Origin: Desulfomonilaceae bacterium
GTDB lineage: Bacteria; Desulfobacterota; Desulfomonilia; Desulfomonilales; Desulfomonilaceae
Direction of reading: 5' to 3'
Length of the DNA stretch: 64,000 nt
Assembly (NCBI GenBank): GCA_049969795.1
Contig: JBMFOE010000003.1
Span: 11,184 to 75,183, forward strand
Shown: piece by piece, positions 24,063 to 60,055 of the stretch
How the letters are laid out: each line of letters starts with the position of its first letter
How positions within the stretch are numbered: position 1 is the stretch's first letter
Translations under genes and position numbers: made by a program
The notes under the pieces: generated by a model
Told to the model about the DNA's origin: nothing
The model's input: the letters and a program-made list of their open reading frames with translations, nothing else
The model's database searches: none

Positions 24063-25337
24063 TCACCAAAACCAGTGCGGCCGCTGCGAGAGCCATTCTT
24101 CAGCGGTCGCTGTCAACCAATTTTTCAGGCTTGGTTCCACGTAGAATGACGGTTGCATGAGGTCACGGCCAGGAGGGATTATGCCGCGCTGTTCAGCGAT
24201 CATGGCCAGCCGAGTGTGGGGGTAAATCCGAATCCCAACAGACAACCGCAGGCTCTCCAGCTCAAGAGAATCTGCGAATCGGAGACTTTCCAACGCAGTC
24301 TCTTTCGACTCTTCGGGCCCGCCAAGAAGCAGGAAGCCGATGCGTTTGACGCCGTGAGCGGCAAAGAGGCGCGAAGTGTGTCGGACGTCTTCGGGGCTGA
24401 AGCGCTTGTTCATTGACCGGAGCACGCGTGTTGAACCGCTTTCAAAGCCCAGCGAGACTTCTTTACAGCCAGCAGCGGCCATGAGTTCCACGAGTTCGGC
24501 GTCGAGCCGTAGAGGATAGATGATGCAGCGCCACGCGATCTTGAGATTAGCCGCGATTATTTCCCTGCACAAACGCTTCGCGTACCAAGATGGCAAGTTA
24601 AAGGTGTTGTCCACGAAGTAAAATTGCGTGAACCCTTGGCCCGCGGCTAGGGTCAACCAGCGTGCAACCACGTCTGGGGATCGGAATCGCCACGCGGCCC
24701 CTTCTATGGTCTCTGTCGAGCAGTAGCTGCACCGCATTGGGCAGCCTCGGCGGGTCTGCACAGGCAGCCAAAAATTTTGATCTCCTGCCAGGGAATGAGG
24801 CAAGAAGTTTTTTCCGGGCAGCGCAAACCGGTCGAGATCTTTCTGAAACGTTTTTGGTGTGGCCGCTGCCGCTGCTCGGCGATGCAGACCGGGAACCGTC
24901 TCGGGGTGGAGGCCGAGCTCGACGTCGCGCGCCAATCGAACCATTGCCTCCTCGCCTTCACCTGATATTCCCATATCCGCCCCCAAAAATTCGAGGATGC
25001 TGCGGGGGCAAATGCTGTAACCAGCGCCTCCTAGCACGATGGGAACGCGTGTCAGTTCGCGGCACAAGGTCGCCACAGCCTTGACCTCCCCGAGAAAAGT
25101 CTTTGTGTCATTCATCTGCTGGTTGTCGATGTTTCTGGCAGATATCCCGACCAACGCGGGCGCAAAATCTTCCATACGGCGGGCAAGCGCAGAAGCGAAA
25201 TCCGACACTTCCATCAGGTCCATTGCGTACACATCGTGGCCGGCGTCCTGGAGAGCTTGAGCGACGCAAACCAATCCCAGCGGCCACGCACGCATGTTGA
25301 TCTCTTCTCGGTTCGCTGAAATCAGGAGGATTCTCAT
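24063..25337 (-). CDS. B12-binding-domain radical SAM protein
   Basis: N-terminal cobalamin-binding-like MRILLISANRE...LGLVCVAQALQDAGHDV and radical SAM CxxxCxxC (RRGCPMRCSYCS). Confidence 0.85.
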   Translation of the reverse strand: MRILLISANREEINMRAWPLGLVCVAQALQDAGHDVYAMDLMEVSDFASALARRMEDFAPALVGISARNIDNQQMNDTKTFLGEVKAVATLCRELTRVPIVLGGAGYSICPRSILEFLGADMGISGEGEEAMVRLARDVELGLHPETVPGLHRRAAAAATPKTFQKDLDRFALPGKNFLPHSLAGDQNFWLPVQTRRGCPMRCSYCSTETIEGAAWRFRSPDVVARWLTLAAGQGFTQFYFVDNTFNLPSWYAKRLCREIIAANLKIAWRCIIYPLRLDAELVELMAAAGCKEVSLGFESGSTRVLRSMNKRFSPEDVRHTSRLFAAHGVKRIGFLLLGGPEESKETALESLRFADSLELESLRLSVGIRIYPHTRLAMIAEQRGIIPPGRDLMQPSFYVEPSLKNWLTATAEEWLSQRPHWFW

Positions 25338-36386: not shown

Positions 36387-38144
36387 CTAGGCGTACAGAA
36401 ACCGGTACGCAATGGCCTCGATCCCCGCAAGGATGAAATTGCAGTCCACCAAGGCTTCAAAAAAGAGTCGATCCACTGGATGACCTTTGTGATACAGAGC
36501 GACCAGGCCCCACAGCACCACGACGTTCACCATGAGCCACCAGGCCAGCCCTGTGACCCACCCCCACCACGCCGCGGCGCCCAACATGCAGATAATGCAC
36601 AAAACAAGGGCATTCAGGAGCCTTATGGTGCGAGGCGCGCCTATGAGGATAGGTATGGTCTCCCGGCCGACTATCCGATCGCCCTGGATGTCCAACAAAT
36701 CAGAAAGCGCGGTGCGGGTAAACACGCAGCCAGCTGCAAAGAAGAAGGCCGCTGCGACGCTTGGCAGCATGGACAAGTCGATGGCGCGTGCAGCGGGAAG
36801 CACAGCCGCGGCCATGGCCCAGCCGGCTGCCACCAGCGGCGTCTTGGACCCCGGGAAGTCTTTCAAACTCCGCCATTTCAGCGAGGGAAACAAGCTAGGA
36901 GGCAAGAGCTGAGCAGTATAAATACCGCCGGCAGAAATCATCAGGAGCAGCAAGAGAAAGGGATATATCCCCATGAAGGAGCTCAGCGTCAAAGCGAACA
37001 CTGATGAAGAGGCCGCAAGAATCGTCAACAGCGTACGATACCTTGCGTAAAACGCGGCTATTTGAGGCGTGTTAAATCGGACCGCGCCGGACGCGTCATG
37101 GATGCGATTGAACAGGTGCATAGAAAAGACGAAAAGGCAGGACACGGCAACCGGCAGCGCTGACAATGACATGTTCTGAAGGGCCATACAAGCCGCGCTA
37201 AGCGCGCCGCCTGCCAATGCAGCCCAGACGTAAGTCATGATGGCCGCGTCAATGACTTTCCTTGCCAGAGGAAACAATCCCTTTTTGCGTTGGAGATCGA
37301 TCTCTTTTATCTTGTCAATGACGCTGAGAATGAGCCAGTTTGGAGTGCTCGCCCCCGCGGTAACGCCTACCGCGTCTATCCCCTCTAAATGCTGGGCAGA
37401 CAGTTCTTCTTCCGTTTCCACATGCAAGGTCTTCTTACCCTTCGATTCCGCTACCTTGACCAAGCGCGTAGTGTTGCCGGAACCTCGACCGCCCACCACG
37501 ATCACCAGGTCCACGGTCTCTGCGAGTTGCGCTACTTCGTGCTGGCGCTTGCGGGTCGAATTGCATATCGTGTTGTAATTGCGCACATCACGAAAGCGGT
37601 CCTTGATCATTCGGGATATGGCTTCGAACTTTTCCGGTTCCTGGGTTGTCTGGGCTACCAAACATATTCGTCTGTTATCGGGAATTTCATCCATTGCGCG
37701 TAAAGCGCTGGTTGCATCTGGTATGACTACTGCCCCGGCCGCGGCAAAACCCACCAAACCCTTTACTTCCGGGTGATCTTGGTCGCCGACAATGATGCAG
37801 AAATCTCCTGCCCGCGCATGCTTGGCAATGATTGCCTGAACTCGGGCCACGCGAGGACAGGTGGCGTCAACCACCAGGTCTGCTCGCTCTTGCAACTCCT
37901 TGCGTTCCTGAGGCGATATACCGTGCGCGCGAATAATGACGGTTCCGCCCTGCACTTCCGACAAGTCTGTTACCTGTCCTATGCCTTTGGATTGCAAGAG
38001 TTTCAGGGTTTGGGGGTTGTGTATAAGCGGTCCGTAGGTGACGATAGGAGTGGGCACGGATTGCCTCTGGATGTCCAATACCATCTCCACGGCGCGGCGC
38101 ACGCCCATGCAAAAACCCGCCGTCTTCGCAAGCCGAATCTTCAT
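36387..38144 (-). CDS. ispH: 4-hydroxy-3-methylbut-2-enyl diphosphate reductase fused to a C-terminal UbiA-superfamily prenyltransferase membrane domain
   Basis: IspH motifs GFCMGVRRAVE, GPLIHNPQ, DATCPRVARVQ and VVGGRGSGNTTRL lie in residues 1-285. About 300 further residues follow with multiple TM spans and LLDIQGDRIVGRETIPILIG, an Asp-rich UbiA motif. Confidence 0.8.
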   Translation of the reverse strand: MKIRLAKTAGFCMGVRRAVEMVLDIQRQSVPTPIVTYGPLIHNPQTLKLLQSKGIGQVTDLSEVQGGTVIIRAHGISPQERKELQERADLVVDATCPRVARVQAIIAKHARAGDFCIIVGDQDHPEVKGLVGFAAAGAVVIPDATSALRAMDEIPDNRRICLVAQTTQEPEKFEAISRMIKDRFRDVRNYNTICNSTRKRQHEVAQLAETVDLVIVVGGRGSGNTTRLVKVAESKGKKTLHVETEEELSAQHLEGIDAVGVTAGASTPNWLILSVIDKIKEIDLQRKKGLFPLARKVIDAAIMTYVWAALAGGALSAACMALQNMSLSALPVAVSCLFVFSMHLFNRIHDASGAVRFNTPQIAAFYARYRTLLTILAASSSVFALTLSSFMGIYPFLLLLLMISAGGIYTAQLLPPSLFPSLKWRSLKDFPGSKTPLVAAGWAMAAAVLPAARAIDLSMLPSVAAAFFFAAGCVFTRTALSDLLDIQGDRIVGRETIPILIGAPRTIRLLNALVLCIICMLGAAAWWGWVTGLAWWLMVNVVVLWGLVALYHKGHPVDRLFFEALVDCNFILAGIEAIAYRFLYA

Positions 38145-47099: not shown

Positions 47100-47188
47100 C
47101 AAAATGACGCAGAATGATTATGAGCAATAATTGACATACTCAGGCAATTCTTTGTCGGTCTGTAAAAAAGCATTTCAGGTTGGGCGGC

Positions 47189-48286
47189 ATGACAAAACGT
47201 GACTATTACGAAGTCCTAGGGGTGAAGAAGAACGCGGGCCCGGACGAAATCAAAAAAGCGTACCGGAAAAAGGCGCTCCAATATCACCCCGACCGAAACA
47301 AAGGGGATAAACAGGCTGAGGAACTTTTCAAAGAAGCTGCAGAGGCTTATGAGGTCTTGAGCGATCCTGAGAAGAGACAACTTTATGATCGTTTTGGACA
47401 CGCGGGCTTGCAGCAGTCTGGATTCACAGGATTTCGGAACTTCGATGACATCTTTTCTTCCTTTGGCGACATTTTTGAGGAATTTTTCGGTTTCGGGGCC
47501 CGTGGCTCGAGGCGTTCGTCTGTGCGGCAGGGGGCCGACCTCCGTTACGATTTGCAGATTGACTTTATGGATGCCGCGAACGGGAAAGAGGTGGAGATAG
47601 ATGTATCCCGACACGAGGTGTGCCAGGAATGTTCAGGCATCGGAACAAAAGGGGGGACACAGCCATCGGTTTGCACTACATGCGGCGGCAGGGGGCAGGT
47701 GACGCGCTCTCAAGGCTTTTTCTCCATCAGTACGACATGTCCAACCTGCCAGGGAAGTGGAACCATCATCACTGATCCTTGTACTCACTGCAGAGGTACG
47801 GGTCGGGTATTGGCGACCAAAAAGTTGTCCATCCGCGTTCCCCCAGGCGTGGAGACTGGATCTCGACTCCGACTTCAAGGCGAGGGAGAGCCTGGCGATC
47901 CGGGCGCGCCGCCGGGGGACCTTTACGTATTCATTCATGTGAAGGAACACGAGTTTTTTAGGCGGCATGGCGACGACGTGGTGGTCGAGGTTCCCATCAC
48001 CTATACCGTCGCTGCCCTTGGAGGGCAGATCATGATTCCAACGCTCGAGGGACCTGAGCCCTTCCAAGTCCCCAAAGGTACCCAGTCCGGCCAGCAGTTT
48101 CGCATTCCCCAAAAGGGCATGCCCCACTTGCGGGGCAGAGGTCGAGGAGACCTCATCCCCATCCTCTATATAGAGACCCCCACGAAACTCAGTAAGGAAG
48201 AGGAAAATCTTCTCAGACGATTGGCCGAGATTGAAGGTTCGAAGGTATCGCCCAAGAAAAAGGGGTTCTTCATGAGGAATTCGTAG
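47189..48286 (+). CDS. dnaJ: molecular chaperone DnaJ
   Basis: J domain (DYYEVLGV...HPDRN), G/F region and four CxxCxGxG repeats. Confidence 0.95.
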
Positions 48287-48360: not shown

Positions 48361-48858
48361 ATGGACCAGCAACGGATAATAGTACTCGGGGTAGGGAACA
48401 TCCTCCTCCATGACGAAGGTTTTGGAGTGCGGGTCGTAGAAGAGCTCGACAGGCGCTACTCGTTCCCGCCTCACGTGCGGGTAGTGGACGGCGGCACGCA
48501 AGGACTCTGGCTTCTGTCAACCCTTCAAGAAGCGGATGATTTAATAGTGATAGATGCGGTTCTCGGCGATGGTCCCCCAGGCTCGCTCTACGTCCTACAA
48601 AGAGAAGACCTTCCCAAAGGGCTCCGCATGAAACAATCCGCGCACGATTCCGATCTCGTGGAGGCGCTCAATCTGTGCACGCTGCTGGAAACGGGCCCCG
48701 CGCACGTCGTGGTCTTAGGGGTAGAACCCGAGAACATCCAGCCATATGGGTTGGAGCTCACTCCCGCCGTTGCCGCAAGAGTGGACGACGTTATCCAAAT
48801 GGTTTTGCATGAACTAGAAAAAAGGGGCGTTCACCCACAAAAAAAGTTGGAGCAATGA
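48361..48858 (+). CDS. hydrogenase maturation protease (HyaD/HybD family)
   Basis: IIVLGVGNILLHDEGFGVRVVEEL and DAVLGDGPPGS motifs. Confidence 0.8.
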   Translation: MDQQRIIVLGVGNILLHDEGFGVRVVEELDRRYSFPPHVRVVDGGTQGLWLLSTLQEADDLIVIDAVLGDGPPGSLYVLQREDLPKGLRMKQSAHDSDLVEALNLCTLLETGPAHVVVLGVEPENIQPYGLELTPAVAARVDDVIQMVLHELEKRGVHPQKKLEQ

Positions 48859-48954
48859 CCCTGCTATGCTATGCTGCCGTTCCATGATTTATTGTGATCC
48901 GGTTGAGGTCAGTCCTCAGCCGTGGATAAAACGATACCATCGAGGAGGCTTGGT

Positions 48955-49386
48955 ATGAGAAACAAGGGACGGGTGTTAATTGCGTTGGGGTTGGCTATGG
49001 TCTTCGCAGCCGCGCTGACATTGGCCTATGCAGCTACCGCCATGCCGGAGAAAGATATCACAATCCATTCGAAAGACGTATTTAAGGAGCCCAAGAAAGG
49101 CCCTGTGGTATTTCCGCACGTAAAGCACAAAGCGCTCAAGTGTACCGATTGCCACCATGAATACAAAGACGGCAAGAATGTGTGGCAGGAAGGCCAGGAA
49201 GTGAAGAAGTGTTCCGCATGCCACAAGCTGGAAGCTGAAGGCAAGATCGTAAAATTGGAAAAAGCCTATCATGACAAGTGCATAAATTGCCACAAGAAGT
49301 ATAAGCAGGAGAAAAAGCCCACCGGGCCGACAGCCTGCACGAAGTGCCATCCCAAAGCGGCCGGCGGCGACGAAAAAGAAAAATAA
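48955..49386 (+). CDS. periplasmic tetrahaem cytochrome c3
   Basis: Signal peptide plus four CxxCH sites (CTDCHH, CSACHK, CINCHK, CTKCHP) in about 110 mature residues. Confidence 0.85.
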   Translation: MRNKGRVLIALGLAMVFAAALTLAYAATAMPEKDITIHSKDVFKEPKKGPVVFPHVKHKALKCTDCHHEYKDGKNVWQEGQEVKKCSACHKLEAEGKIVKLEKAYHDKCINCHKKYKQEKKPTGPTACTKCHPKAAGGDEKEK

Positions 49387-49430: not shown

Positions 49431-49462
49431 AAAAACCCTCTCCCTTGTGGAGGGGGTTTTTT
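49431..49462. terminator. bidirectional rho-independent terminator
   Basis: AAAAA-CCCTCTCC-CTTGT-GGAGGGGG-TTTTTT: an 8-bp stem (one G-U pair), 5-nt loop, T-run downstream and A-run upstream. It sits between convergent genes. Confidence 0.75.
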
Positions 49463-49515: not shown

Positions 49516-49815
49516 TCAGGACGTCCGGCGGTAGCAACAGCGTTTATACTTCAGTCCGGAGCCGCAAGGACATGGCCCGTTCAGGGGAGGGGACAGCGGC
49601 TTTTTCTGCGTCGCTGATGTGATCTTGAGTCGTCTCGCGGCGAGGAAGTATTTGACAAGCAGATACACGGTGATGCCGCAGAATACGAGCCACACGAGGA
49701 CAAGCCCGATCGTCTCCCTTTCGTTGAACATCCCTGATGATACAAACCACCCGAGAGCGACTGTCCAAATAATCAGCCATGCCGCCGCATACCACGGACT
49801 TTTGATTTTTTTCAT
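49516..49815 (-). CDS. small membrane protein with C-terminal SEC-C metal-binding motif
   Basis: Two hydrophobic helices followed by CPCGSGLKYKRCC at the C-terminus. Confidence 0.6.
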   Translation of the reverse strand: MKKIKSPWYAAAWLIIWTVALGWFVSSGMFNERETIGLVLVWLVFCGITVYLLVKYFLAARRLKITSATQKKPLSPPLNGPCPCGSGLKYKRCCYRRTS

Positions 49816-49920: not shown

Positions 49921-49953
49921 AGGGGCTCTACGCGTGTTTTGCAAAGGTGCGAT

Positions 49954-52362
49954 GTGGCGATTTTCCTTTTCATTAACGTCAATCATGACGTAGGGCGTGA
50001 AAGTTCGGAAAGCATTCCCATTTCCCTGGGATATGTCCTGGCTGCGGTACAGGCTGCCGGCGGCTCTGGCGTCATTTTGGATGACCTGAGAGATGGGCCT
50101 TTAACGCTGAAGACGCTTGAAAAATGGATCAGAAAGATACAGCCGGATATAGTGGGATTCACGGCGTACCAGTGTACGATGCATCGAATACGTTTCTTGT
50201 GCCGTTATGTCAAATCGCGCTATCCCCATATTCTTACCATGCTCGGCGGGCCTCAAATATTCGCCATGCCTTCACACGCGCTTTTCAACCTGCCGGATGT
50301 GGACATCCTCGTGCGTGGGGATGGCGAATACATAGTTCCTCGCCTAGCGGCTGCGCTTGATGCGGAGCGGAGTCTGGATGATGTTGAGGGAATAACCTTC
50401 CGTAGGGACGGCGAGGTGATCGACGCCAGACCGCTGCCGCGCCTAGCCAACGATCTCGATGAATATCCCTCTCCTTACTTGAAGGGAATCCTGAATCTCC
50501 AGGGAAAGACCACGGCCATTCTGCTTTCGTCCCGCGGCTGCAAACACGTCTGTCGTTTCTGCATAACGCCGAAACTTTGCGGCGGCGCGGTTCGATACCA
50601 TTCCATCGAGAGGGTGATCTCGGAGATGGAGTTCTTGGCCCGCATGGGTATCGAGCGATTCTGGTTCGCTGATCCGAACTTTACCGAAGACAAAGAAAGA
50701 ACCTCGTTGCTTTTGGAAGAAAAGATTCGTCGAGGCATAGGGACGCCTTTTTGGTGCCAAACTAGGGCGGACCTCGTTGACGCTGACATGTTGCGCCAGC
50801 TCAAACACGCGGGCGCGGACACCATTGCGTTCGGTTTGGAATCCGGCAGTCCCCAGGTCTTGCAAAAGACTGGGAAACGCATCGAACTCGATCAATTGGA
50901 AGAACACATACGCACGGCCCAGGCGCTTGGCATGGAAACGGAGCTGTTTTCGATCTTTGGGCTGCCCGGCGAAACAGTCGAAGACGCCAGACGCACAATG
51001 GAATTTCTCAAATCTCTCGGAATACCGATTCAATCGAATTCGGGTTCGCAGCAGATGCAGCTCTATTTCGGGTCGGTTTATGAGAGAGACCCAGAGAAAT
51101 TTGGCATCGTTCCAAGAAGGGAATACAGACCAGCATATTTGTCTATAGGAGAGGATTACGAAACCACCGCGATGTCAGCTCGTGACCTGGCGAAGGTCCG
51201 GAATTTATGGGCGCTGGCAAATGAACAGATGGAAACAGACGTCTATTATAAACAGCGAACGTTTGAGGTGCTGCAATTCCTGATAGAGAATCGCGACGAC
51301 CTCGCGCACGAACCGTCGTACTATGCCTACGGCGCGCTGGCATCCGCGGCCATCGAGGATTATTTCCTCCTCGAACAATTCCTCGAAGGATATGAAAGGC
51401 TTCCGTCCCACATGCGGCCGCCTACTCAAGAGCTTTTGGCAATGATTCCCTTCTTTCAAGAATCGTCAGACCCAATACAGCCACAGGACAGAGTCATATT
51501 CGACTCTCGAAGCTTCATCGATGGGATACCCTTTACTGGCATTTCCGGCAAGTATTGGGATGTCTTATTGGGGAGAGGCCTACTTTTGGAAGACTTTGAA
51601 GCGGGTTTCTTGGGCGCCCGGGCAGGTATGGCCATCGAGTTCAGTTTCGTTTTTCCGAATGATTACTTTCAAGCAGAACTCGGCGGGAAACAGGTCGAGG
51701 TGCATGCGAAGATTCACAAGGTTTTCACGCCCATCGCAATATCATCCATTGACGAACTGAAACGTACTCCATTCCGAAACAAATATTGTTTCAACGACCT
51801 GAACCTGCTGCGCGACCAAAATGAAATCCTTTATTACCTTGCGCTCAGGGATGCTGACCCTGCGACGCTCCTGAAGACCCCGACACATTTTTTGGCGTTG
51901 GTTCATAGGCTGGCGAAGCTGAGCAAGTATGAGGAGATCGGGAAGCTGGCCGCGCTTATTGCGAATAAGCCCACAGCCTTGCATGCCTTTGCAGAAACCT
52001 TAGCAGTCTGCGGAAAATACGAATGGGCGCTCCCCTACTATGAAGCCCTTTCTCATCATCTCCCCTCTGCAATGCTCAAGCAAATAAGGTGCTTATTACA
52101 CATGGGGCAGCATGAGAGAGCTGCAGCCCTCATGTCAGAGATACCCCCGAGCAAGGATTATGAATACCAGCAGGTCCTTCTTGAATGCCTCATGAAGGTG
52201 GACCCAGGATCGGAGCGCATTCCAGAACTAGAGCATCAGGTCATGGACTTGAGAGTGAAAGACGCAGTAACCAGGGAGGCTTTTGCCCGAGGAAATCATT
52301 TTGCCTCTCGTCCCGTTGTGCATGGCTTCGTTCGTGACGACGCCAGAGACGAGGAAATATAG
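49954..52362 (+). CDS. B12-binding radical SAM enzyme fused to a trigger-factor/FKBP-type PPIase-like domain and a helical C-terminal region
   Basis: B12-like N-terminus; CKHVCRFC (CxxxCxxC); residues about 515-597 (QDRVIFDSRSFIDGIPFTG...LGRGLLLEDFEAGFLGARAGMAIEFSFVFPNDYFQAELGGKQVEVHAKIHKV) align with the trigger factor PPIase domain. The ORF opens at TTG 49939; GTG 49954 has the better RBS (AAAGG). Confidence 0.8.
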   Translation: MAIFLFINVNHDVGRESSESIPISLGYVLAAVQAAGGSGVILDDLRDGPLTLKTLEKWIRKIQPDIVGFTAYQCTMHRIRFLCRYVKSRYPHILTMLGGPQIFAMPSHALFNLPDVDILVRGDGEYIVPRLAAALDAERSLDDVEGITFRRDGEVIDARPLPRLANDLDEYPSPYLKGILNLQGKTTAILLSSRGCKHVCRFCITPKLCGGAVRYHSIERVISEMEFLARMGIERFWFADPNFTEDKERTSLLLEEKIRRGIGTPFWCQTRADLVDADMLRQLKHAGADTIAFGLESGSPQVLQKTGKRIELDQLEEHIRTAQALGMETELFSIFGLPGETVEDARRTMEFLKSLGIPIQSNSGSQQMQLYFGSVYERDPEKFGIVPRREYRPAYLSIGEDYETTAMSARDLAKVRNLWALANEQMETDVYYKQRTFEVLQFLIENRDDLAHEPSYYAYGALASAAIEDYFLLEQFLEGYERLPSHMRPPTQELLAMIPFFQESSDPIQPQDRVIFDSRSFIDGIPFTGISGKYWDVLLGRGLLLEDFEAGFLGARAGMAIEFSFVFPNDYFQAELGGKQVEVHAKIHKVFTPIAISSIDELKRTPFRNKYCFNDLNLLRDQNEILYYLALRDADPATLLKTPTHFLALVHRLAKLSKYEEIGKLAALIANKPTALHAFAETLAVCGKYEWALPYYEALSHHLPSAMLKQIRCLLHMGQHERAAALMSEIPPSKDYEYQQVLLECLMKVDPGSERIPELEHQVMDLRVKDAVTREAFARGNHFASRPVVHGFVRDDARDEEI

Positions 52363-52395: not shown

Positions 52396-53229
52396 ATGGA
52401 AGAAACAGAGTCGAAGAAGCCCGCGCTGGTCGTCTATACCAGAGAAGGCGCGATTGGAATCATAACCTTGAACCGGCCGGACAAGCGAAACGCCCTGAAC
52501 CTTTCTGTGTGGTTGGATTTGGGAACTGCGGTGAGCGCCGCCGAAGCCGATGACGATGCGCGAGTCGTTCTCGTGAAGGGGCAAGGCAAGGCGTTTTGTG
52601 CGGGTTTGGATTTGAGTCCGAACAACGATATCATCTCCTATATAAGCGCTGCCCCGTCAGCGTCGCAAAAAATGGCTTTTTATAACGTGCTCAAGAAGAT
52701 CCAAGATATCCATACGAGACTGGAAAGGCTCTCGAAACCCACAATAGCGGTGATACAGGGCTATTGTCTGGGCGCTGGCCTGGAATTGGCGCTCTGTTGC
52801 GACATTCGGTTGTGTTCCGCGGATGCGGTTTTCGCGCTGCCAGAGGCGAAGCTTGCGATTATCACTGATGTAGGGGGTCTGCAGAGACTGTCCAAAGTAG
52901 TTGGCTGCGGTCATGCAAGGGAGATAGCCTTTCGAGGTCATAGATTTGACGCAGAACACGCTCGGGCCATACAGTTAGTCAATCGCGTGTATCCAGACCA
53001 CGACGCGCTGTTTCAGGAGGCCGCGAAAATGGCGGAAGAAATTGCCGCAAACCCGCCGCTGGCCGTGCAGGGAGCAAAAGACGTGCTCATGTTTACGGAC
53101 AGATTGTTCGTTTCGCAGTCTCTTGAATACAATGCAGCTCGGTCGGCCATGATCATGCCATCCGACGACTTATACGAAGCCTTTGCCGCGTTCATGCAAA
53201 AAAGAGAGGGGCAATTCAAAGGATCTTGA
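52396..53229 (+). CDS. enoyl-CoA hydratase/isomerase (crotonase) family protein
   Basis: ITLNRPDKRNAL, GKAFCAGLDL and GYCLGAGLELALCCD motifs. Confidence 0.85.
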   Translation: MEETESKKPALVVYTREGAIGIITLNRPDKRNALNLSVWLDLGTAVSAAEADDDARVVLVKGQGKAFCAGLDLSPNNDIISYISAAPSASQKMAFYNVLKKIQDIHTRLERLSKPTIAVIQGYCLGAGLELALCCDIRLCSADAVFALPEAKLAIITDVGGLQRLSKVVGCGHAREIAFRGHRFDAEHARAIQLVNRVYPDHDALFQEAAKMAEEIAANPPLAVQGAKDVLMFTDRLFVSQSLEYNAARSAMIMPSDDLYEAFAAFMQKREGQFKGS

Positions 53230-53349
53230 AAGCCATACGCCTTGGTCGCCACACATTAAGAGATGCGCGACCTTCGAGAGAAAACAAGCCAATGCGCTTT
53301 TCCATGTGCGCGCTCGGACAATGAAATTCAACGCCGCGAGGAGGATCCC

Positions 53350-55353
53350 TTGATACAGAAGTTGTTCGAACCCATTAAGATCGGCCCCATGACTGCGCCC
53401 AACAGGGTCGTCATGACCGCCATGCATCTCAACTATACCCCGGATGGCAAGGTGAACGACACCTTTCTTGAATTCTACCGCGCTCGCGCCGACGGCGGCG
53501 CGGGCCTCATCATAGTTGGCGGAGCAGAGATCAACGACCAGGCATGCGGTCTCGACTTCTTTCTCTCCATCAAAGACGACTCATGCATCCCCGGTCTCAC
53601 GAGACTTACCGACGCCATCCATGCCTCCGGCTCCAAGATCGCGATACAACTCTATATGGCAGGCGCGTATTCCTACTGCGGTCTCAAAGGCCTTCCAATC
53701 CTCGCGCCATCTGAATTTACCTCGTATTTCACCCGTCAAAAAACGACGCCCATGACAAAAGAAGACATCCACAGGGTGCAAGAGGACTTCGCCAAAGCTA
53801 CCGTGAGGGCGAAAGAGGCTGGCTTTGACGCCGTGGAAATCATTGCCTCCGCGGGTTACCTCATCTCTCAGTTTTTGTCGCCCAAGACCAACAAGAGGGA
53901 CGACGAGTATGGCGGTCCGTTGGAGAACAGAATGCGTTTCGGCGTCGAGACCATTGAAAAGGTGCGGGAGAAAGCCGGCAACGATATGGCCGTTCTCGTA
54001 AGGGTAGCAGGAAACGATTTTGTCCCGGGCAGCCACACCAACAAAGAGGCCCGTGTATTCGCTGCCGCGTGCCAGAAGGCTGGGGTCGATTGCATCAACG
54101 TCACTGGCGGCTGGCACGAGAGTCGCGTGCCGCAGATCACTATGGACTTGCCGCAGGCCGGCTACACCTATCTGGCAAGGGGCATCAAAGAAGTGGTTTC
54201 CGTGCCGGTGATCGCGTGCAATCGAATCAACGATCCTATTGTCGCCGAGGAAGTACTGAAGATGGAGGTCGCCGACCTCGTAGGAGTAGCAAGAGGATTG
54301 ATCGCTGATCCGGAGTTTGTGAACAAATCGCGTCAGGGCAAGTTCCAGGAAATTAGACGCTGTGTGGCCTGCAATCAACGCTGCTTTGACCACGTGTTCC
54401 AGCTCTTGCCGGTGGGTTGCATCGTGAATCCAAGAGCGGGAAAAGAGGCCCAGACGGTGCTCGAACCTGCATCGGTTTCCAAAAAGATTCTCGTCGCCGG
54501 CGCCGGTCCGGCCGGGTGTGAATTTTCCCTTATCGCAGCCCAGCGCGGGCATCGCGTTATCCTGTGCGACAAAGGTCAGGAAATCGGCGGCCAAGTCCCC
54601 TGGTCTGCAAAGGCTACCCAGAAACACGACTTCCATTATATCTTCGATTATTATCGGGCGGTATTGCCATCCAATGGCATAGAAATCCGGCTTGGCGTAG
54701 AGGTCACTTCTGAACTCGTGGCGCAAGAAAAGCCGGATGTGGTTGTTGTGGCCACCGGCGCGGCCCCTTTTAAGCCGCCCATCGACGCGGTGAACGCCCC
54801 AAACGTGTATCAGGCATGGGATGTGCTCAAAGGCCAGGCAGTTACCGGAAGAAAAGTAGTGGTCGTCGGGGGCGGCTCTGTGGGACTTGAAACAGCCATT
54901 TTTTTGGCCAGCAAGGGCACCATATCTCCCGAGCAGCTCTACTTTCTGACTCTTCATGAGGCGGAGCAGCCGGAGGTGCTCAGAAGCCTCATGCTCAATG
55001 GCGTCAAAGAAGTGACCGTCATAGAGATGCTTCCCAAAGTGGCGCAGGACGTGGGACCATCAACGCGTTGGGTGCTTTTGAAAGAGGTTCAGTTGCGTGG
55101 AATAAAGGTGGTGACCGGCGCGAAGATGAAAGACATAGCAGATGACCATGTGATCTACACAGACGCCAGCGGCAACGACGTGCGGCTCGAGGCGGATTCT
55201 GTTGTCTTGGCCATGGGCGCAAGGCCTGAAAATTGGCTGGCCGCGGCTCTTCAGGGTCTCGGCGTCGAGGTGAGGGTCATCGGAGACGCCAGAAAAGTAG
55301 GACGGATCGGCGAAGCCATCGAAGACGGATTCAAGCTAGCCTCTGAGTTGTAG
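53350..55353 (+). CDS. FadH / Old-Yellow-Enzyme-family Fe-S flavoenzyme (2,4-dienoyl-CoA reductase-like NADH:flavin oxidoreductase)
   Basis: OYE TIM-barrel start FEPIKIGPMTAPNRVVMTAMH. Cys cluster CVACNQRCFDHVFQLLPVGC. Two Rossmann motifs, VAGAGPAGCE and VVGGGSVGLE. TTG 53350 follows GAGGAGGA; the longer ORF from 53263 is less likely. Confidence 0.85.
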   Translation: MIQKLFEPIKIGPMTAPNRVVMTAMHLNYTPDGKVNDTFLEFYRARADGGAGLIIVGGAEINDQACGLDFFLSIKDDSCIPGLTRLTDAIHASGSKIAIQLYMAGAYSYCGLKGLPILAPSEFTSYFTRQKTTPMTKEDIHRVQEDFAKATVRAKEAGFDAVEIIASAGYLISQFLSPKTNKRDDEYGGPLENRMRFGVETIEKVREKAGNDMAVLVRVAGNDFVPGSHTNKEARVFAAACQKAGVDCINVTGGWHESRVPQITMDLPQAGYTYLARGIKEVVSVPVIACNRINDPIVAEEVLKMEVADLVGVARGLIADPEFVNKSRQGKFQEIRRCVACNQRCFDHVFQLLPVGCIVNPRAGKEAQTVLEPASVSKKILVAGAGPAGCEFSLIAAQRGHRVILCDKGQEIGGQVPWSAKATQKHDFHYIFDYYRAVLPSNGIEIRLGVEVTSELVAQEKPDVVVVATGAAPFKPPIDAVNAPNVYQAWDVLKGQAVTGRKVVVVGGGSVGLETAIFLASKGTISPEQLYFLTLHEAEQPEVLRSLMLNGVKEVTVIEMLPKVAQDVGPSTRWVLLKEVQLRGIKVVTGAKMKDIADDHVIYTDASGNDVRLEADSVVLAMGARPENWLAAALQGLGVEVRVIGDARKVGRIGEAIEDGFKLASEL

Positions 55354-55377: not shown

Positions 55378-57087
55378 ATGACCAGCGATTCTATAAATGT
55401 CGTCATTAGCGGCGAGGCGGGGCAGGGTCTGGCCACGATCGGCCAAGTATTCACAAAAGCTCTTGTGAAAGCCGGATATTACATCGTCGTGACGCAAAGC
55501 TATCAATCGAGAATCAGGGGAGGATGCAACGCATATTCAGTGCGGATAAGCCCCCTACCCATTGAATCGCCAGTGGAGAAGGTGGACGTTCTTGTGGCCC
55601 TTTCAGACGAAGCCTACCGCGTCAATCGGGACGCTGTCCTGGATTCGGGCCTCATCATGGCGGACGAAAAAATAGATTTATCCGGGGAGACGCGGCCCCA
55701 TACGTCCGTGAAGAGACCGGATGACGCGCGGTACTTCAACGTCTTCTTCCTGGGGGTTTTGGCGAGAGCGCTTGGCGTGGACTCGGACAGTCTTCGAGAA
55801 GCGTTGACCGAGTTCTTCGTCGGTCATCACCCTGATGCTGTGCAGAAGAATCTTGACAGCCTCGAAGAAGGCCGACAGTGGGCTTCATCGCAGCCCGATC
55901 ATATGGATCGTCCTCTGCCGACCGCGGCTCGTAAGGGATTCTGCATGATCAACGGCAATGAAGCGATCGCCATAGGCGCCATGTCGGCAGGATTGAAATT
56001 CTTCAGCTTCTACCCTATGACCCCGGCCACGTCGGTAGCCAATACCTTGGCCCCCCATGCGGCCACCATGGGTTTCCTTGTGGAGCAGGCCGAGGATGAA
56101 ATAGCCGCTATTAACATGGCCATTGGCGCATCCTTTGCCGGCGCGCCGAGTATGACGGCCACTTCGGGCGGCGGTTTCGCGCTCATGACCGAGGCGGTCA
56201 GCCTCGCGGGCATGACTGAAACGCCAATAGTTATAGTCGTGGCGCAAAGACCCGGTCCCTCCACCGGCTTGCCCACGCGGACAGAACAGGGAGACTTGGA
56301 GTTTGTGCTGCATGCAGGGCACGGCGAATTTCCGAGGGTTCTCTATGCGCCCGGCTCCGTGGAGGAATGCTTTCATCTCACCAGGGAAGCCTTCCTTATG
56401 GCCGAGAAGAGCCGTGGGCCCGTATTCATTCTGACCGACCAATTTCTGGCGGATTCATATCGTTCCGTGGAGCCTTTTGACTTGGAAGCCATCCCTTCCC
56501 TGAACGTGTGTAACGACTTGGCTTCTTCAGAAAAGCCTTTTCAGACCTACCAGATCACTGCCAGCGGCGTCTCTCCGAGACTTGCCCCCGGCCTCGTCCA
56601 ATCATGCGTACGAGCCTGGAGCTCTGAACAGCTCGCTGTGGCAGACAGCGACGAACACACCGAGGATGGCCACCTCACTGAAGATTTGCATGTAAGAAAG
56701 CTGATGGTGCAGAAAAGATGGAGAAAATTGTCAGTTATCAAGGACCATGTGCGCAAACCGCTCTTTTTCGGAGACAAAGACCCTGACGTGCTCTTGGTGT
56801 GCTGGGGCTCTTCCTTGGGCGCGGTGCGGGAAACCGTCGCTCGAAAAATCGATGAAGGACAATCCTTTGGGATGCTTCATTTTTCCCAAGTGTGGCCTAT
56901 CGTTGCCAAAGACGTTCTCCCCTATCTACAAAGCGCGAAAAGGGTAATAGGAGTAGAAAGCAACTTCACCGGTCAGTTCAGCAGGCTTCTCCGTCGAGAG
57001 ACAGGCTTCGATATTTCCGAAAGGATTCTGAGGTACGACGGGTTGCCGTTGACGTTGGAGTATGTCTTAGACCGGATTTCTGCATAG
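55378..57087 (+). CDS. 2-oxoacid:ferredoxin oxidoreductase, fused gamma-alpha subunit (KorA-like)
   Basis: Gamma-type N-terminus VISGEAGQGLATIGQVFTKAL...SRIRGG, then alpha-type INGNEAIAIGAMSAGLKFFSFYPMTPATS. Confidence 0.85.
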   Translation: MTSDSINVVISGEAGQGLATIGQVFTKALVKAGYYIVVTQSYQSRIRGGCNAYSVRISPLPIESPVEKVDVLVALSDEAYRVNRDAVLDSGLIMADEKIDLSGETRPHTSVKRPDDARYFNVFFLGVLARALGVDSDSLREALTEFFVGHHPDAVQKNLDSLEEGRQWASSQPDHMDRPLPTAARKGFCMINGNEAIAIGAMSAGLKFFSFYPMTPATSVANTLAPHAATMGFLVEQAEDEIAAINMAIGASFAGAPSMTATSGGGFALMTEAVSLAGMTETPIVIVVAQRPGPSTGLPTRTEQGDLEFVLHAGHGEFPRVLYAPGSVEECFHLTREAFLMAEKSRGPVFILTDQFLADSYRSVEPFDLEAIPSLNVCNDLASSEKPFQTYQITASGVSPRLAPGLVQSCVRAWSSEQLAVADSDEHTEDGHLTEDLHVRKLMVQKRWRKLSVIKDHVRKPLFFGDKDPDVLLVCWGSSLGAVRETVARKIDEGQSFGMLHFSQVWPIVAKDVLPYLQSAKRVIGVESNFTGQFSRLLRRETGFDISERILRYDGLPLTLEYVLDRISA

Positions 57088-57200
57088 ATGAAGGCGGCTG
57101 AATGTTCAGCGTGGCACAAGACTGACAAGACGTAGCGGCAGGGACGGGACGGCAATGTGTCGCCAAAAGAGTCGTCTTCCTTGCCCCATGAGGAGCAGCA

Positions 57201-58070
57201 ATGAGCGTCGAGACTAACACGTCGGCGGACCAGGTGTTTGGAAATTTCGAGACAGCCTGGTGTCCAGGGTGTGGAAATCATTCCATTTTAGCGGCCATGA
57301 AAAAGGCCCTGACAGCTCTCGGTTTGAAACCCTTCGAGGTCCTGTTCGTATCGGGCATTGGCCAGGCGGCAAAGGCCCCGCATTACCTGCGGGCAAACGT
57401 GTTCAACGGACTTCACGGCAGGGCTCTGCCCGTTGCAACAGGGGCGAAAATAGCCAATCCGGAACTTACTGTGATTGTAGAAAGCGGGGACGGATGTACG
57501 TACGGCGAGGGCGGCAACCATTTCCTCAACGCGATAAGGCGCAACATCGACGTGACCATGGTGGTGCACAACAATCAGGTGTATGGTCTCACCAAAGGTC
57601 AAGCCAGTCCAACCAGCATGGTCGGCTTTGTGACCAAGACCCAACCTGCTGGCGCGGTGGCAGAACCCTTCAACCCGGTCCTGGTCGCCATCGCCATGAA
57701 AGCCGGTTTCGTGGCGCGGGGCTTCTCTGGAAAGATCGATCACCTGTCTTCACTCATACAGCAAGGCGTGCAGCACAAAGGATTCTCTCTCATTGACGTG
57801 CTTCAACCCTGCGTTTCCTTTAATCATGTGAATACCTACGCGTGGTACAACCAGAGGTGCTACGAGATCGGAGCTGATCATGATCCCGCAGACAGGTCCC
57901 GTGCAATGATATTGGCTGAAGAATGGGGCGACAAGATTCCCATAGGCGTCCTTTACAAAAACGACCGACCATCATTCGAATCACACTTCCCTTTCTTGCA
58001 ACGAGGGCCCTTGGCGTCGCAACCGGCGAACATGGAGACGTTAAAGTCCATTGTGAAGTCCTTTCAATGA
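57201..58070 (+). CDS. 2-oxoacid:ferredoxin oxidoreductase beta (TPP-binding) subunit (KorB-like)
   Basis: WCPGCGNHSIL and the TPP motif GDGCTYGEGGNHF...NNQVYGLTKGQ. Confidence 0.9.
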   Translation: MSVETNTSADQVFGNFETAWCPGCGNHSILAAMKKALTALGLKPFEVLFVSGIGQAAKAPHYLRANVFNGLHGRALPVATGAKIANPELTVIVESGDGCTYGEGGNHFLNAIRRNIDVTMVVHNNQVYGLTKGQASPTSMVGFVTKTQPAGAVAEPFNPVLVAIAMKAGFVARGFSGKIDHLSSLIQQGVQHKGFSLIDVLQPCVSFNHVNTYAWYNQRCYEIGADHDPADRSRAMILAEEWGDKIPIGVLYKNDRPSFESHFPFLQRGPLASQPANMETLKSIVKSFQ

Positions 58071-58116
58071 GCCAGACTGCCAACCCCAGGCCGCATGACA
58101 AAGTAAGGAGCGAACC

Positions 58117-58899
58117 ATGACGAACACAGAAGCAGCGCAATTTATCAGTGACAATCTCCGGTTAAAGACAGCCCCCATTGCTGTCCGTTTTTTGCGGGCG
58201 GGTGAGGCGTTCCCAGAGAATTGTCGAAGACCTTCCGCACACTTGGGCAAGCGCATCACCATCTGTCAGGCGGTCACCATGGCCAGGGTTTACTCCTGGG
58301 AGCTTGGCTTGGACAAAGAAGACCTTATATGCGTACCGGCCATGATCACCTTCGGCTTCACGAGGGCCTCCCGTCCTATGGACACCCTTGCAAAGCTTTT
58401 TTGCGACGTCGGCTTTGCCGAGCATGCGGACGGCGCTGCAAGAGAGACGTCCAGCATGTATTCTTTGGAAAAAGAGAACCAGCATGGCATCTTGCTGGGG
58501 CCCTTACAAAAGGCGGAATACGAGCCGGATACAGTGTGCTTGTACGGCAATCCCGCGCAGATCATGCGCCTCATCCAGGCGTGGACCTTTCACTCGGGCC
58601 TCAGGGTAGATGGCCATTTCGGAGGCAAAGTGGAATGCACGGAATACTTGTTGGCGCCCTTCAAGACAGGAATGCCTCGGATCGCCATCCCCGGCATGGG
58701 CGACAGAATCTTTTCCATGACCCAAGATGAAGAAATGGTCTTCGCCCTGCCGGGCGCCGCGCTGGAGCACCTCGTGATCGGCCTGCGCAATGCCGGGCGC
58801 AAAATAGGCGCAAGATATCCCATTACCTTTTATCAGAATTTCCAGCCCGAGTTTCCCAAACCATACAAAGTGGTTGCAGACGAGCTGGAACTCTTCTAG
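58117..58899 (+). CDS. DUF169-like protein of unknown function
   Basis: Size and pattern (LKTAPIAVRFL...ITICQAVTMAR...VPAMITFGF) match my recollection of DUF169. Not verified by search. Confidence 0.5.
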   Translation: MTNTEAAQFISDNLRLKTAPIAVRFLRAGEAFPENCRRPSAHLGKRITICQAVTMARVYSWELGLDKEDLICVPAMITFGFTRASRPMDTLAKLFCDVGFAEHADGAARETSSMYSLEKENQHGILLGPLQKAEYEPDTVCLYGNPAQIMRLIQAWTFHSGLRVDGHFGGKVECTEYLLAPFKTGMPRIAIPGMGDRIFSMTQDEEMVFALPGAALEHLVIGLRNAGRKIGARYPITFYQNFQPEFPKPYKVVADELELF

Positions 58900-58984
58900 G
58901 CCATTGCGGGAGGCCCCGAGACGCCGCATTCGTGACCAGAAATGCACGAATAGGGCCGGTACAGACGCAAAGGAGGTTCTTTTC

Positions 58985-60055
58985 ATGGAAGATGTGTATA
59001 AACGACTGGCGCGCAAATTAGACGAGCTGCCGAACGGCTATCCTGAAACCGAATCGGGCGTGGAGCTGAAAATCCTTAAAAAGATCTTTAGCCCTGAAGA
59101 CGCGGAAATGGCCCTCAAGATCAACCCGTTTCCCGAGACTGCTGAAGCCATAGCCCAACGTTTGGCGCTGCCCCTGGATGAAATGCAAAAAATACTCGAC
59201 CGCATGGTTGAGAAGGGACAAATCGGATCGGCCCGTTTGAAGGGGGAGCAGGTGTATATGCTCGTACCATTTATCGTAGGCATCTTTGAATTCCAACTCA
59301 ACAGATTGGACAAAGAACTCGCCGACCTGGTCGAAGAATATGCGCCGTCGTTGATGACAACCGTGGGCAAGGTCCCGCCCGCGGTGATGCGAGTGGTTCC
59401 TATCAATGCTCAGATCAGGGGCCAGCAAGAGGTGCATCCGTACGAAGACATAAGGCAGACTTTGGGAAAGGCGAAATCCTTTCAGGTCATGGACTGCATT
59501 TGTAGAAAAGAAGCCGCGCTTCAGGGACACCCATGCAAGCACCCCATTGAAGTATGCTTGTCCTTTTCTCAGCATGAAGGCGCCTTTGACAGGTACCACA
59601 TGGGACGAATCATCACCAAGGACGAGGCCCTTGCGGTACTGGACAAGGCAGAAGAAGAAGGGCTCGTTCACTGCACGTACAACGTCCAGTCCGGTCAGAT
59701 GTTTGTCTGTAATTGCTGTCCCTGCTGTTGCGGGATCCTCCGGGGCGTCAAGTACTTCAAAGCCCCTCATCTCATGGCGAGGAGCAACTATGTGGCATAT
59801 ATTGACCCGGATGTCTGCGTGGCATGCGGAACCTGCGCCGACGAAAGATGCCCCATGAAGGCCATCAACGAGGGAGAAAGCGCGTATCAAGTTGATCCAG
59901 AGCGGTGCATTGGGTGCGGGGTGTGCACGACGACGTGTCCCACCGATGCGATCTCCCTGTTGAGAAAGCCCGAAGAGCTTCAAGAACAACCCCCTAGAAA
60001 CATTGTCGAGTGGTATATGCAACGAGCCGCCAACAGGGCAGCCTCGGCGCACTGA
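58985..60055 (+). CDS. Cys-rich Fe-S protein with C-terminal 2x[4Fe-4S] ferredoxin domain
   Basis: CVACGTCADERCP and CIGCGVCTTTCP, plus upstream MDCICRK...CKHPIEVC and FVCNCCPCCCG. RBS AAGGAGG before ATG 58985. Confidence 0.65.
   Translation: MEDVYKRLARKLDELPNGYPETESGVELKILKKIFSPEDAEMALKINPFPETAEAIAQRLALPLDEMQKILDRMVEKGQIGSARLKGEQVYMLVPFIVGIFEFQLNRLDKELADLVEEYAPSLMTTVGKVPPAVMRVVPINAQIRGQQEVHPYEDIRQTLGKAKSFQVMDCICRKEAALQGHPCKHPIEVCLSFSQHEGAFDRYHMGRIITKDEALAVLDKAEEEGLVHCTYNVQSGQMFVCNCCPCCCGILRGVKYFKAPHLMARSNYVAYIDPDVCVACGTCADERCPMKAINEGESAYQVDPERCIGCGVCTTTCPTDAISLLRKPEELQEQPPRNIVEWYMQRAANRAASAH

Follow-up and report, generated by a model that had tools for sequence, protein, structure and literature searches.

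Among the hardest alkylations in biology are several catalysed by class B (cobalamin-dependent) radical S-adenosylmethionine (SAM) enzymes, most families of which have no known substrate. The described systems closest to the one dealt with here are Mmp10 and MgmA/QCMT, archaeal methylases of methyl-coenzyme M reductase (MCR) in which a cobalamin (B12) domain precedes the radical-SAM core and which C-methylate, by radical chemistry, a residue of one specific protein; CysS, TokK and ThnK, iterative C-methyltransferases and multi-domain class B enzymes of the antibiotic clusters of actinomycetes and myxobacteria, which possess additional C-terminal helical domains and act on pantetheine-linked small-molecule substrates; and the radical-SAM maturases of ribosomally synthesized and post-translationally modified peptides (RiPPs) of the ApyD and PoyB/C type, in which the B12-radical-SAM enzyme is joined to a peptide-holding domain, the winged-helix RiPP recognition element (RRE). 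To our knowledge, it is the RRE that RiPP maturases use, and a fused recognition module is absent from the MCR methylases. The present analysis concerns a gene located within a stretch of 64,000 nucleotides (the window; contig JBMFOE010000003.1 of assembly GCA_049969795.1, positions 11,184 to 75,183) from a Desulfomonilaceae bacterium, whose product shares with Mmp10 and MgmA the B12 domain followed by the radical-SAM core but, unlike these enzymes, continues into a peptidyl-prolyl isomerase (PPIase) domain of the FKBP fold and of the trigger factor (TF) type, followed by a TPR-like helical tail. We read this fusion protein as a radical, probably methylating, protein-modifying enzyme that would hold a polypeptide client by means of its FKBP-TPR module, a reading to which a probability of roughly 0.45 can be given.

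In the 802-residue protein the B12-binding domain and the radical-SAM core are followed by a helical linker, the FKBP domain and a helical tail of ~180 residues (Table 1). The protein is 100% identical to P0001 (NCBI MGC8906101.1), which originates from a Desulfomonilaceae metagenome-assembled genome (MAG) and is annotated by NCBI merely as “radical SAM protein”, whereas the automatic UniRef name of one of its homologues is “peptidylprolyl isomerase”. That the N-terminal part is a cobalamin-domain radical-SAM enzyme bearing the motif CKHVCRFC had been recognized in an earlier, sequence-only reading of the window and is borne out by the matches to PF02310 and PF04055 and by the three cysteines of the motif (C196, C200 and C203), which are invariant in 34 aligned homologues of the core family (i.e., the subfamily of the window protein, that of the Desulfomonilaceae) and also across the sister subfamilies (B, C, D2 and others, 36–49% identical). 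The solved structures nearest to the catalytic half by sequence (phmmer against the Protein Data Bank, PDB) are AprD4, CysS, TokK and MgmA, and a Foldseek search with the structural model of the fusion returned the class B structures CysS, TokK, OxsB, MgmA and TsrM with E values from 1e-20 to 1e-15. The best matches of the catalytic half lie in the CysS/TokK/ThnK group (PDB phmmer E 2e-21 and 1.4e-20; Foldseek E about 1e-19), with which the fusion shares 17–21% identity and whose extra C-terminal domains are neither FKBP nor TPR; one of the structural matches of lowest rmsd is the protein-glutamine methylase MgmA (9ccb; E 1e-15, 4.2 Å over 371 columns). Every sequence and fold criterion thus points in the same direction, that of a predicted member of class B. 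On the other hand, none of the named B12-radical-SAM equivalogs (ApyD, BchE, HpnJ, KedN5, PhpK, MgmA TIGR04014, ladderane TIGR04072, etc.) accounts for it, all 13 models scoring far below their NCBIfam cutoffs: ApyD, the best match of the catalytic half, reaches 126 bits vs. a cutoff of 750, and TIGR04014, the comparison relevant to Mmp10 and MgmA, 100.7 bits vs. 360. Judged by these profiles, the fusion protein belongs to no named B12-radical-SAM subfamily.

A second B12-binding radical-SAM protein, standalone and 424 residues long, is encoded elsewhere in the window (24063-25337, minus strand); its best NCBIfam match is TIGR04072, “lipid biosynthesis B12-binding/radical SAM protein” (286 bits vs. 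a cutoff of 360). Its identity of 24% to the catalytic half of the fusion rules out both a close paralogous relationship and the descent of that half from it.

The identity of the domain that follows the linker was approached by several routes. The NCBIfam model TIGR00115 (“tig”) matches residues 504-620 with an E value of 6.3e-17, and it does so through profile positions 144-257 of 410, which correspond to the PPIase portion only; phmmer with the C-terminal 378 residues against all PDB sequences yielded seven chains, all of them trigger factors, the best being 1l1p (E 1.7e-7). Comparison by hhalign with a profile of 25 trigger factors gave a probability of 99.7% and an E value of 2.7e-25 over 125 columns, equating residues ~485-609 with TF ~133-262, so that the last ~12 residues of the helical linker already align with the TF linker. 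When the C-terminal profile was run on 1.84 billion representatives, the top matches were full-length members and fragments of the fusion family, and beyond about E 1e-14 almost all matches were proteins of ~430 residues hit at residues ~130-250, i.e., of TF size and at the position of its PPIase domain; one of these that was checked (P0168) contains both FKBP_C and Trigger_C. Finally, Foldseek with the C-terminal model placed trigger factors on top (E 1.5e-6, a match at the level of the domain), and the model superimposes, with a TM-score of 0.62, on 1l1p, the PPIase domain of E. coli TF in isolation. Since TIGR00115, the PDB search, the profile search of 1.84 billion proteins and hhalign all point to TF, the domain is, by the criterion of sequence, specifically TF-derived, short linker flanks included, and no generic FKBP.

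The sequence-only reading had gone further and claimed a position-by-position correspondence with the E. coli TF PPIase segment. This claim is accurate, in that the TF sequence it gave is correct, nucleotides 51481-51729 translate exactly into the peptide that was quoted, and a gapless alignment with E. coli TF 161-240 contains 24 identical and 41 similar residues out of 80 (the residue numbers 515-597 given at that time count from the TTG start at 49939). Likewise, the proposed structure prediction followed by a Foldseek search returned trigger factors first. Nevertheless, the fusion protein is, by sequence, not a trigger factor but the holder of a TF-type PPIase domain only: the homology is confined to residues ~485-609, there is no Trigger_N match that would indicate a ribosome-binding N-domain, the place of which is taken by the B12/radical-SAM enzyme, and the whole-protein TIGR00115 score is 61.5 bits vs. 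a cutoff of 180.2. The same PPIase domain is joined to an enzyme in the fusion and to a ribosome-docking chaperone in TF.

Within the FKBP domain a signature formed by G540, G542, F548, E549, G554, F563, F567, P568 and Y571 is nearly invariant through all subfamilies. The counterparts of the TF pocket residues F177, F185, F198 and Y221, in the numbering of the TF literature, are F527, W535, F548 and Y571; all four are invariant in the 34 core homologues, F548 and Y571 being nearly so across all subfamilies.

The sequence-only reading had also held that a helical region follows the PPIase domain as it does in TF. The helical region of ~180 residues is indeed present (DSSP on the model), but its kinship is a different one. 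A Pfam search for Trigger_C (PF05698) found no match in the tail at E values up to 10, the hhalign homology to TF ends ~15 residues past the PPIase domain, at TF ~262, and Foldseek relates the helical part to the TPR protein MamA and to consensus TPR structures (target-normalised TM-score, TMt, 0.39-0.57); these results rule out a TF C-domain. In addition, TPR_19 rises above the Pfam cutoff in the homologues P0155 and P0159, in which weak TPR_14 matches also fall on the region equivalent to the linker. By sequence and predicted structure the tail is therefore best described as a TPR-like solenoid. Among the domain models relevant to the sequence-only reading, B12-binding, Radical_SAM and TIGR00115 were thus matched, whereas in the window protein FKBP_C, which several homologues do match, stayed below its threshold and Trigger_C was not found.

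Because the tail is TPR-like, the layout of the module is that of FKBP plus TPR as in FKBP51, FKBP52, FKBP38 and AIP/XAP2, and not that of a TF body. In these immunophilins, too, the FKBP fold is followed by a TPR solenoid, and Foldseek with the whole C-terminal module retrieved FKBP52, FKBP51, FKBP38 and XAP2 with E values of 2e-5 to 6e-4 over ~300-330 columns (1qz2 and 5mgx being among the structures matched by the C-terminal model). The immunophilins are, however, eukaryotic Hsp90 co-chaperones with 10-13% identity to the fusion and no sequence-level match to it, and the TM-score to the fusion module is low (about 0.2-0.28) because the orientation of the domains differs. Since the FKBP domain of the fusion derives from TF, the likeness amounts to a convergent architecture, an analogy, yet a possibly instructive one, insofar as the immunophilins clamp the C-terminal tail of a partner with their own TPR.

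The AlphaFold2 (AF2) model of the full-length protein, built with 34 sequences, has a mean pLDDT of 88.4 and a pTM of 0.85, the C-terminal 378 residues modelled alone reaching a pLDDT of 85.4. As the 802-residue model is both confident and compact, it argues that the FKBP-TPR module is an integral part of the enzyme rather than a floppy appendage. Beyond the solenoid, the otherwise disordered C-terminus contains a P-x-V-H-G motif that is missing from most sister subfamilies. Among the 34 core homologues, H790 and G791 never vary and P787 hardly does; the motif might serve as a ligand of the protein's own TPR, or as a metal or cofactor ligand.

Table 1. Positions in the window of the fusion gene, of the parts of its product and of the adjacent genes
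Feature	Nucleotides	Strand	Residues or length	Basis and remarks
SEC-C protein, two predicted transmembrane helices, cytoplasmic linker	49516..49815	-	99 aa	Pfam PF02810, 31.3 bits vs. cutoff 20.4
rSAM-FKBP-TPR (radical-SAM) fusion gene	49954..52362	+	802 aa	GTG start; alternative TTG at 49939 gives 807 aa
Cobalamin (B12)-binding Rossmann-like domain	50011..50346	+	aa 20-131	Pfam PF02310, 46.5 bits vs. cutoff 32.1
Radical-SAM core	50527..51009	+	aa 192-352	Pfam PF04055, 84.5 bits vs. cutoff 29.5
CxxxCxxC cluster motif (CKHVCRFC)	50539-50562	+	C196/C200/C203	Within radical-SAM core
Helical linker/bundle between radical-SAM core and FKBP	51178..51441	+	aa 409-496	DSSP on model
FKBP-fold, TF-type PPIase domain	51451..51735	+	aa 500-594	TIGR00115, phmmer, hhalign, Foldseek
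TPR-like alpha-solenoid	51748..52284	+	aa 599-777	Weak TPR_19/TPR_16 matches in window protein; Foldseek
Conserved P-x-V-H-G motif	52312..52326	+	aa 787-791	In otherwise disordered C-terminal tail, pLDDT < 50
Crotonase-fold enoyl-CoA hydratase/isomerase	52396..53229	+	277 aa	NCBIfam PRK06142, 273 bits; 33 nt downstream of fusion
FadH-type Fe-S flavoenzyme (OYE FMN + FAD/NAD(P) domains)	53263..55353	+	696 aa	33 nt past crotonase
2-oxoacid:ferredoxin oxidoreductase alpha/gamma and beta, DUF169, ~360-390-aa protein ending in 2x[4Fe-4S] ferredoxin domain	55378..60055	+

Could an open reading frame of such composition be an artefact, namely a chimera, produced by misassembly or a frameshift, in which a radical-SAM gene was joined to one for trigger factor? 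Nothing was found in its favour, although in some long-read assemblies the gene is split into fragments. Against it stand independent full-length homologues of 776-855 residues and 57-81% identity, more than 120 in number, from many studies and assemblers, the occurrence of the fusion at 68 genome loci, all from Desulfomonilaceae/Desulfomonilales-type MAGs, and at 80 metagenome loci, the similar GC content of the two halves of the gene (0.525 and 0.511) and the confident model of the whole protein; furthermore, as both the N and the C domain of trigger factor are missing, no tig gene has been juxtaposed here. An artefact may be dismissed as having virtually no likelihood: the architecture is conserved and is no assembly chimera. 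Thus the fusion, which the sequence-only reading had suggested looking for in other genomes, does occur there, and its four-part architecture is shared by the sister subfamilies, which belong to other Thermodesulfobacteriota (e.g., Desulfovibrionales MAGs). The FKBP-TPR module was found neither alone nor on another enzyme, either in a word-based search, which returned only fragments of the same family, or in the profile search of 1.84 billion proteins. A search of the full-text literature likewise turned up no account of a radical-SAM enzyme fused to trigger factor or to FKBP, nor of the gene cluster, so that the earlier statement that no such architecture was known to have been described still stands.

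The only split arrangement encountered is that of four loci (L160, L162, L163 and L164), where a standalone B12-radical-SAM protein of ~430 residues, 45-50% identical to the N-terminal half of subfamily B, is followed by a separate protein of 460-510 residues with C-terminal TPR repeats and without an FKBP domain.

The genes that accompany the fusion were examined at 164 loci, by tblastn with the genes of the window and by unbiased clustering of the flanking open reading frames (ORFs); the counts given for neighbours below refer to 100 de-duplicated core-family loci, the denominators being the loci with enough flanking DNA. In the sister subfamilies the company kept by the fusion is to a large extent made of genes for the modification of proteins and peptides. 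In subfamily D2 (~20 loci, including L084, L116, L118, L124, L129, L130, L132, L136 and L153), the fusion of which is 36-40% identical to the window protein, a fixed order is observed: a YcaO protein (~575-600 aa), a CxxCxxCC-like protein, a 115-aa ORF, the fusion, a small Cys-rich protein, a PrmA-like methyltransferase, a second YcaO, DUF6955, a TPR protein and a ~390-aa protein. By its gene content this cluster resembles a so far uncharacterised system for the modification of proteins or peptides. In subfamily B (L073, L082, L085 and L086) an E. coli-type YcaO-TPR protein (~578 aa) is encoded directly upstream and a DsrC-family protein directly downstream of the fusion, L082 having between these also genes for a CxxCxxCC protein and a small radical-SAM protein. 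Subfamily C is characterized by a divergent deacetylase-CBS-acetyl-CoA hydrolase/GNAT trio. YcaO enzymes introduce modifications into peptide backbones, PrmA-type enzymes are protein methyltransferases (PrmA itself acting on ribosomal protein L11), and the combination of YcaO, a B12-radical-SAM enzyme and a methyltransferase is the toolkit that modifies MCR; the sister-subfamily fusions, too, co-occur with YcaO and a SAM methyltransferase.

TF-type FKBP domains and TPR domains are polypeptide-binding modules, as exemplified by the substrate binding of TF and by the TPR of FKBP52, which binds the MEEVD tail of Hsp90. The reading of the fusion as an enzyme acting on a polypeptide client is favoured because both components of the module bind polypeptides, because the module persists where the subfamilies otherwise share only the catalytic half, and because several sister subfamilies sit among protein- and peptide-modifying genes. 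The mechanism that can be envisaged is one in which the FKBP pocket and the TPR groove would capture an extended or unfolded segment, or the C-terminal tail, of a specific protein; the captured segment would then be presented to the radical-SAM/B12 active site, which would radically modify an unactivated carbon, most probably by methyl transfer via methylcobalamin, as Mmp10 and MgmA do on MCR, the logic proposed for the fusion being the same. In joining a B12-radical-SAM enzyme to a domain that would hold a peptide, the fusion would also resemble the RRE-bearing RiPP maturases, from which it differs in having FKBP-TPR in place of a winged helix and in that no precursor peptide gene was recognized near it. 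While the domain composition, the TF origin of the FKBP domain, the TPR nature of the tail, the conservation and the gene linkages are shown, polypeptide binding by the module, the chemistry of methylation and the identity of the client are what we infer. The suggestion, made from the sequence alone, of a protein substrate and of an enzyme equipped with a polypeptide-binding module of its own is to be regarded as plausible, in the light of the sister clusters with their YcaO, PrmA-like and DsrC proteins, and as weakened by the β-oxidation-like operon partners that the fusion has in the core family.

As to the client, the candidate ranking first by linkage is the small SEC-C membrane protein, which had escaped the sequence-only reading and which could be either the substrate or a membrane anchor with its tail held in the TPR, in the manner that the immunophilins might exemplify. 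Its gene (~95-100 aa) lies divergently, on the opposite strand and 106-490 bp upstream of the fusion, in 74 of 82 core loci and is the most tightly linked neighbour of all, still accompanying the fusion at some loci from which the crotonase and FadH genes are missing (L015, L055 and L066). The protein, of which 41 orthologues were aligned, has a conserved MKKIKSPWY N-terminus, two hydrophobic helices, a basic cytoplasmic linker and a C-terminal zinc-binding motif, PCPCGSGLKYKRCC, its end reading P-x-L-N-x-x-CPCGSGKKYKRCC. A small adjacent gene with so strict a linkage is what is typically seen for a dedicated substrate or partner. The next candidates by linkage would be the co-operonic FadH-like reductase and the crotonase.

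The crotonase gene is found directly downstream of the fusion in 66 of 77 core loci, the FadH-like gene past the crotonase in 52 of 60, and the trio formed with SEC-C is kept in 46 of the 54 loci that are fully covered. The crotonase has among its top PDB matches 3-hydroxypropionyl-CoA dehydratase and the Δ3,5-Δ2,4-dienoyl-CoA isomerase 1dci (E 1e-45), while the FadH-like protein is matched over its full length by 2,4-dienoyl-CoA reductase of E. coli (1ps9, E 3e-122), matches 2-naphthoyl-CoA reductase (6qkg, E 1e-102) and gives NCBIfam BaiCD and mycofactocin-OYE matches that remain under their cutoffs. From the end-to-end alignment with 1ps9 and from the dienoyl-CoA isomerase relatives, the pair looks like auxiliary enzymes of unsaturated acyl-CoA metabolism. 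No terminator-like site was found between the fusion, the crotonase and the FadH-like genes, the gaps being of 33 nt, and the cytochrome c3 gene that lies upstream is set apart from the fusion unit by a terminator-like hairpin that follows it (49436-49456); this hairpin is the sole useful site of a generic promoter and terminator scan that otherwise performed no better than with shuffled sequences. No cobalamin or other riboswitch was found upstream, the only Rfam match in the window being a tRNA, and a σ54 promoter in the divergent intergenic region is ruled out, its motif occurring in 1 of 101 upstream regions. YcaO and PrmA genes were found neither in the window nor within 10 kb in the core loci, and DsrC was found once (L029).

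The genes following the FadH-like gene (last row of Table 1) occur in this order only in the nearest relatives (L005, L006 and L056) and probably reflect lineage synteny outside the core unit. Upstream of the fusion, the window contains genes for a HyaD/HybD-type hydrogenase maturation protease and a TmcA-like tetrahaem cytochrome c3 (48361-49386 and 47180-48286, plus strand), preceded by DnaJ, none of which is conserved beside the fusion in other loci. Other upstream neighbours seen in core loci are a σ54 activator (24 loci) and a ThiF-family gene (20 loci). Beyond the SEC-C gene, 45 core loci have a gene for a proline-rich protein of ~190 residues with a signal-peptide-like N-terminus and no Pfam match (e.g., L011 8952-9542 and L001 8959-9522, both on the plus strand), in the position occupied in the window by the cytochrome c3 gene. 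Elsewhere in the window, an 834-aa ORF (19716-22220, plus strand) matches no Pfam family at E 1e-5 and has a lone, very weak NCBIfam match to polyamine aminopropyltransferase, and a 585-aa ORF (36387-38144, minus strand) combines LytB/IspH and UbiA prenyltransferase domains in an unusual fusion.

Several findings weigh against a polypeptide client. With regard to the module, two of the seven classical pocket positions of TF are non-aromatic in the fusion (F168 → S518 and F233 → V583), F527 and W535 are not conserved in the sister subfamilies, and the window protein gives no reported Pfam FKBP_C (PF00254) match at threshold, this profile scoring 25-34 bits, vs. a cutoff of 21.1, in the homologues P0047, P0048, P0087, P0149 and P0155. 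With regard to the substrate, neither an RRE/PqqD-like domain (Pfam, NCBIfam) nor a conserved short precursor-peptide-like ORF was seen, the best structural matches of the catalytic half are the small-molecule enzymes CysS and TokK, OxsB and AprD4, and the co-directional neighbours, 33 nt apart, resemble a dienoyl-CoA isomerase/reductase pair as in a metabolic operon.

The last two points are also those from which a different function may be construed, in which the B12-radical-SAM half, together with the crotonase and the FadH-like enzyme, would modify an acyl-CoA or pantetheine-linked substrate or a membrane lipid, and the module would only dock the enzyme, for instance at the cytoplasmic SEC-C tail, thereby placing it at the membrane. 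The operon-like layout on a single strand and its retention, the dienoyl-CoA kinship of both neighbours, the fact that CysS and TokK, the top structural relatives, act on pantetheinylated substrates, and the presence of a SEC-C protein with two predicted transmembrane helices and a cytoplasmic tail all speak for a small-molecule or lipid enzyme. Class B enzymes that methylate or desaturate lipids are known, among them the hopanoid methylases, and the same direction is indicated by ladderane-type NCBIfam matches and by a preprint on archaeal lipids; moreover, the title of a reference attributes to Desulfomonile tiedjei signature branched long-chain hydroxy fatty acids, which can be taken as a lead only. 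On the other hand, the sister subfamilies B, C and D2 keep the FKBP-TPR module with no SEC-C, crotonase or FadH gene beside the fusion, so that the role of the module cannot be specific to an acyl-CoA pathway or to a SEC-C anchor, and at the three loci without crotonase and FadH the SEC-C gene is still linked. We know, in addition, of no role of FKBP or TPR domains in the recognition of acyl-CoA or lipids. Adjacency as such fits a small molecule as well as a protein client, because radical enzymes are often encoded beside the protein that they modify. On balance, a small-molecule or lipid substrate is the main rival reading, credible but less probable than a polypeptide client.

The conservation of the individual domains bears on yet another function of the module, that of a built-in device for the assembly or maturation of the enzyme (folding, Fe-S or cobalamin loading, oligomerisation) or for the recruitment of a chaperone or partner, in which case the catalytic half alone would recognize the substrate. 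Compared across subfamilies, the window protein shares 45-54% identity in the radical-SAM core, 38-45% in the B12 domain, 20-36% in FKBP and 16-26% in TPR; the TPR part thus diverges fastest, as might be expected of an assembly device, although this divergence would fit client-specific recognition equally well. The retention of the module across subfamilies with unrelated neighbours is consistent with a role that does not depend on the substrate, and the split arrangement, a standalone radical-SAM enzyme followed by a separate TPR protein devoid of FKBP, counts in the same direction. FKBP-type proteins such as SlyD mature metalloenzymes, and SlyD and SlpA are among the weaker Foldseek matches. 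Within the core family, however, FKBP is about as conserved (60-68%) as the catalytic domains (60-66% for B12, 72-73% for the radical-SAM core) and the invariance of its putative pocket residues speaks for a specific ligand; besides, no other class B radical-SAM enzyme is known to us to need such a module. An assembly device must therefore be considered quite improbable.

If the protein-modifying enzyme is retained as the preferred reading, it may be extended, in a form that we consider unlikely, to an undescribed post-translational modification system of Thermodesulfobacteriota, in which a B12-radical-SAM enzyme endowed with its own TF-like holdase would capture an as yet unfolded segment or a tail of one specific client and modify it by radical chemistry, through C-methylation or otherwise. 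The clients of such a system would be the SEC-C membrane protein or the FadH-like/crotonase pair in the core family, and DsrC or another protein in the sisters linked to YcaO and PrmA. Were this the case, the system would represent a bacterial counterpart of the multi-enzyme modification of MCR.

What could be the significance of a chaperone-derived FKBP domain and a TPR solenoid on a class B radical-SAM enzyme? The combination suggests a new mode of substrate recruitment, in that this family may make use of a holdase, and the sister clusters hint at a novel post-translational modification of core proteins in relatives of the sulfate reducers. Should the substrate prove instead to be a small molecule or a lipid, what the gene would mark in Desulfomonilaceae is a new step that modifies an acyl-CoA or a lipid. 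In either case, the linkage with SEC-C and the sister clusters with YcaO, the PrmA-like methyltransferase and DsrC offer concrete candidates for experiments.

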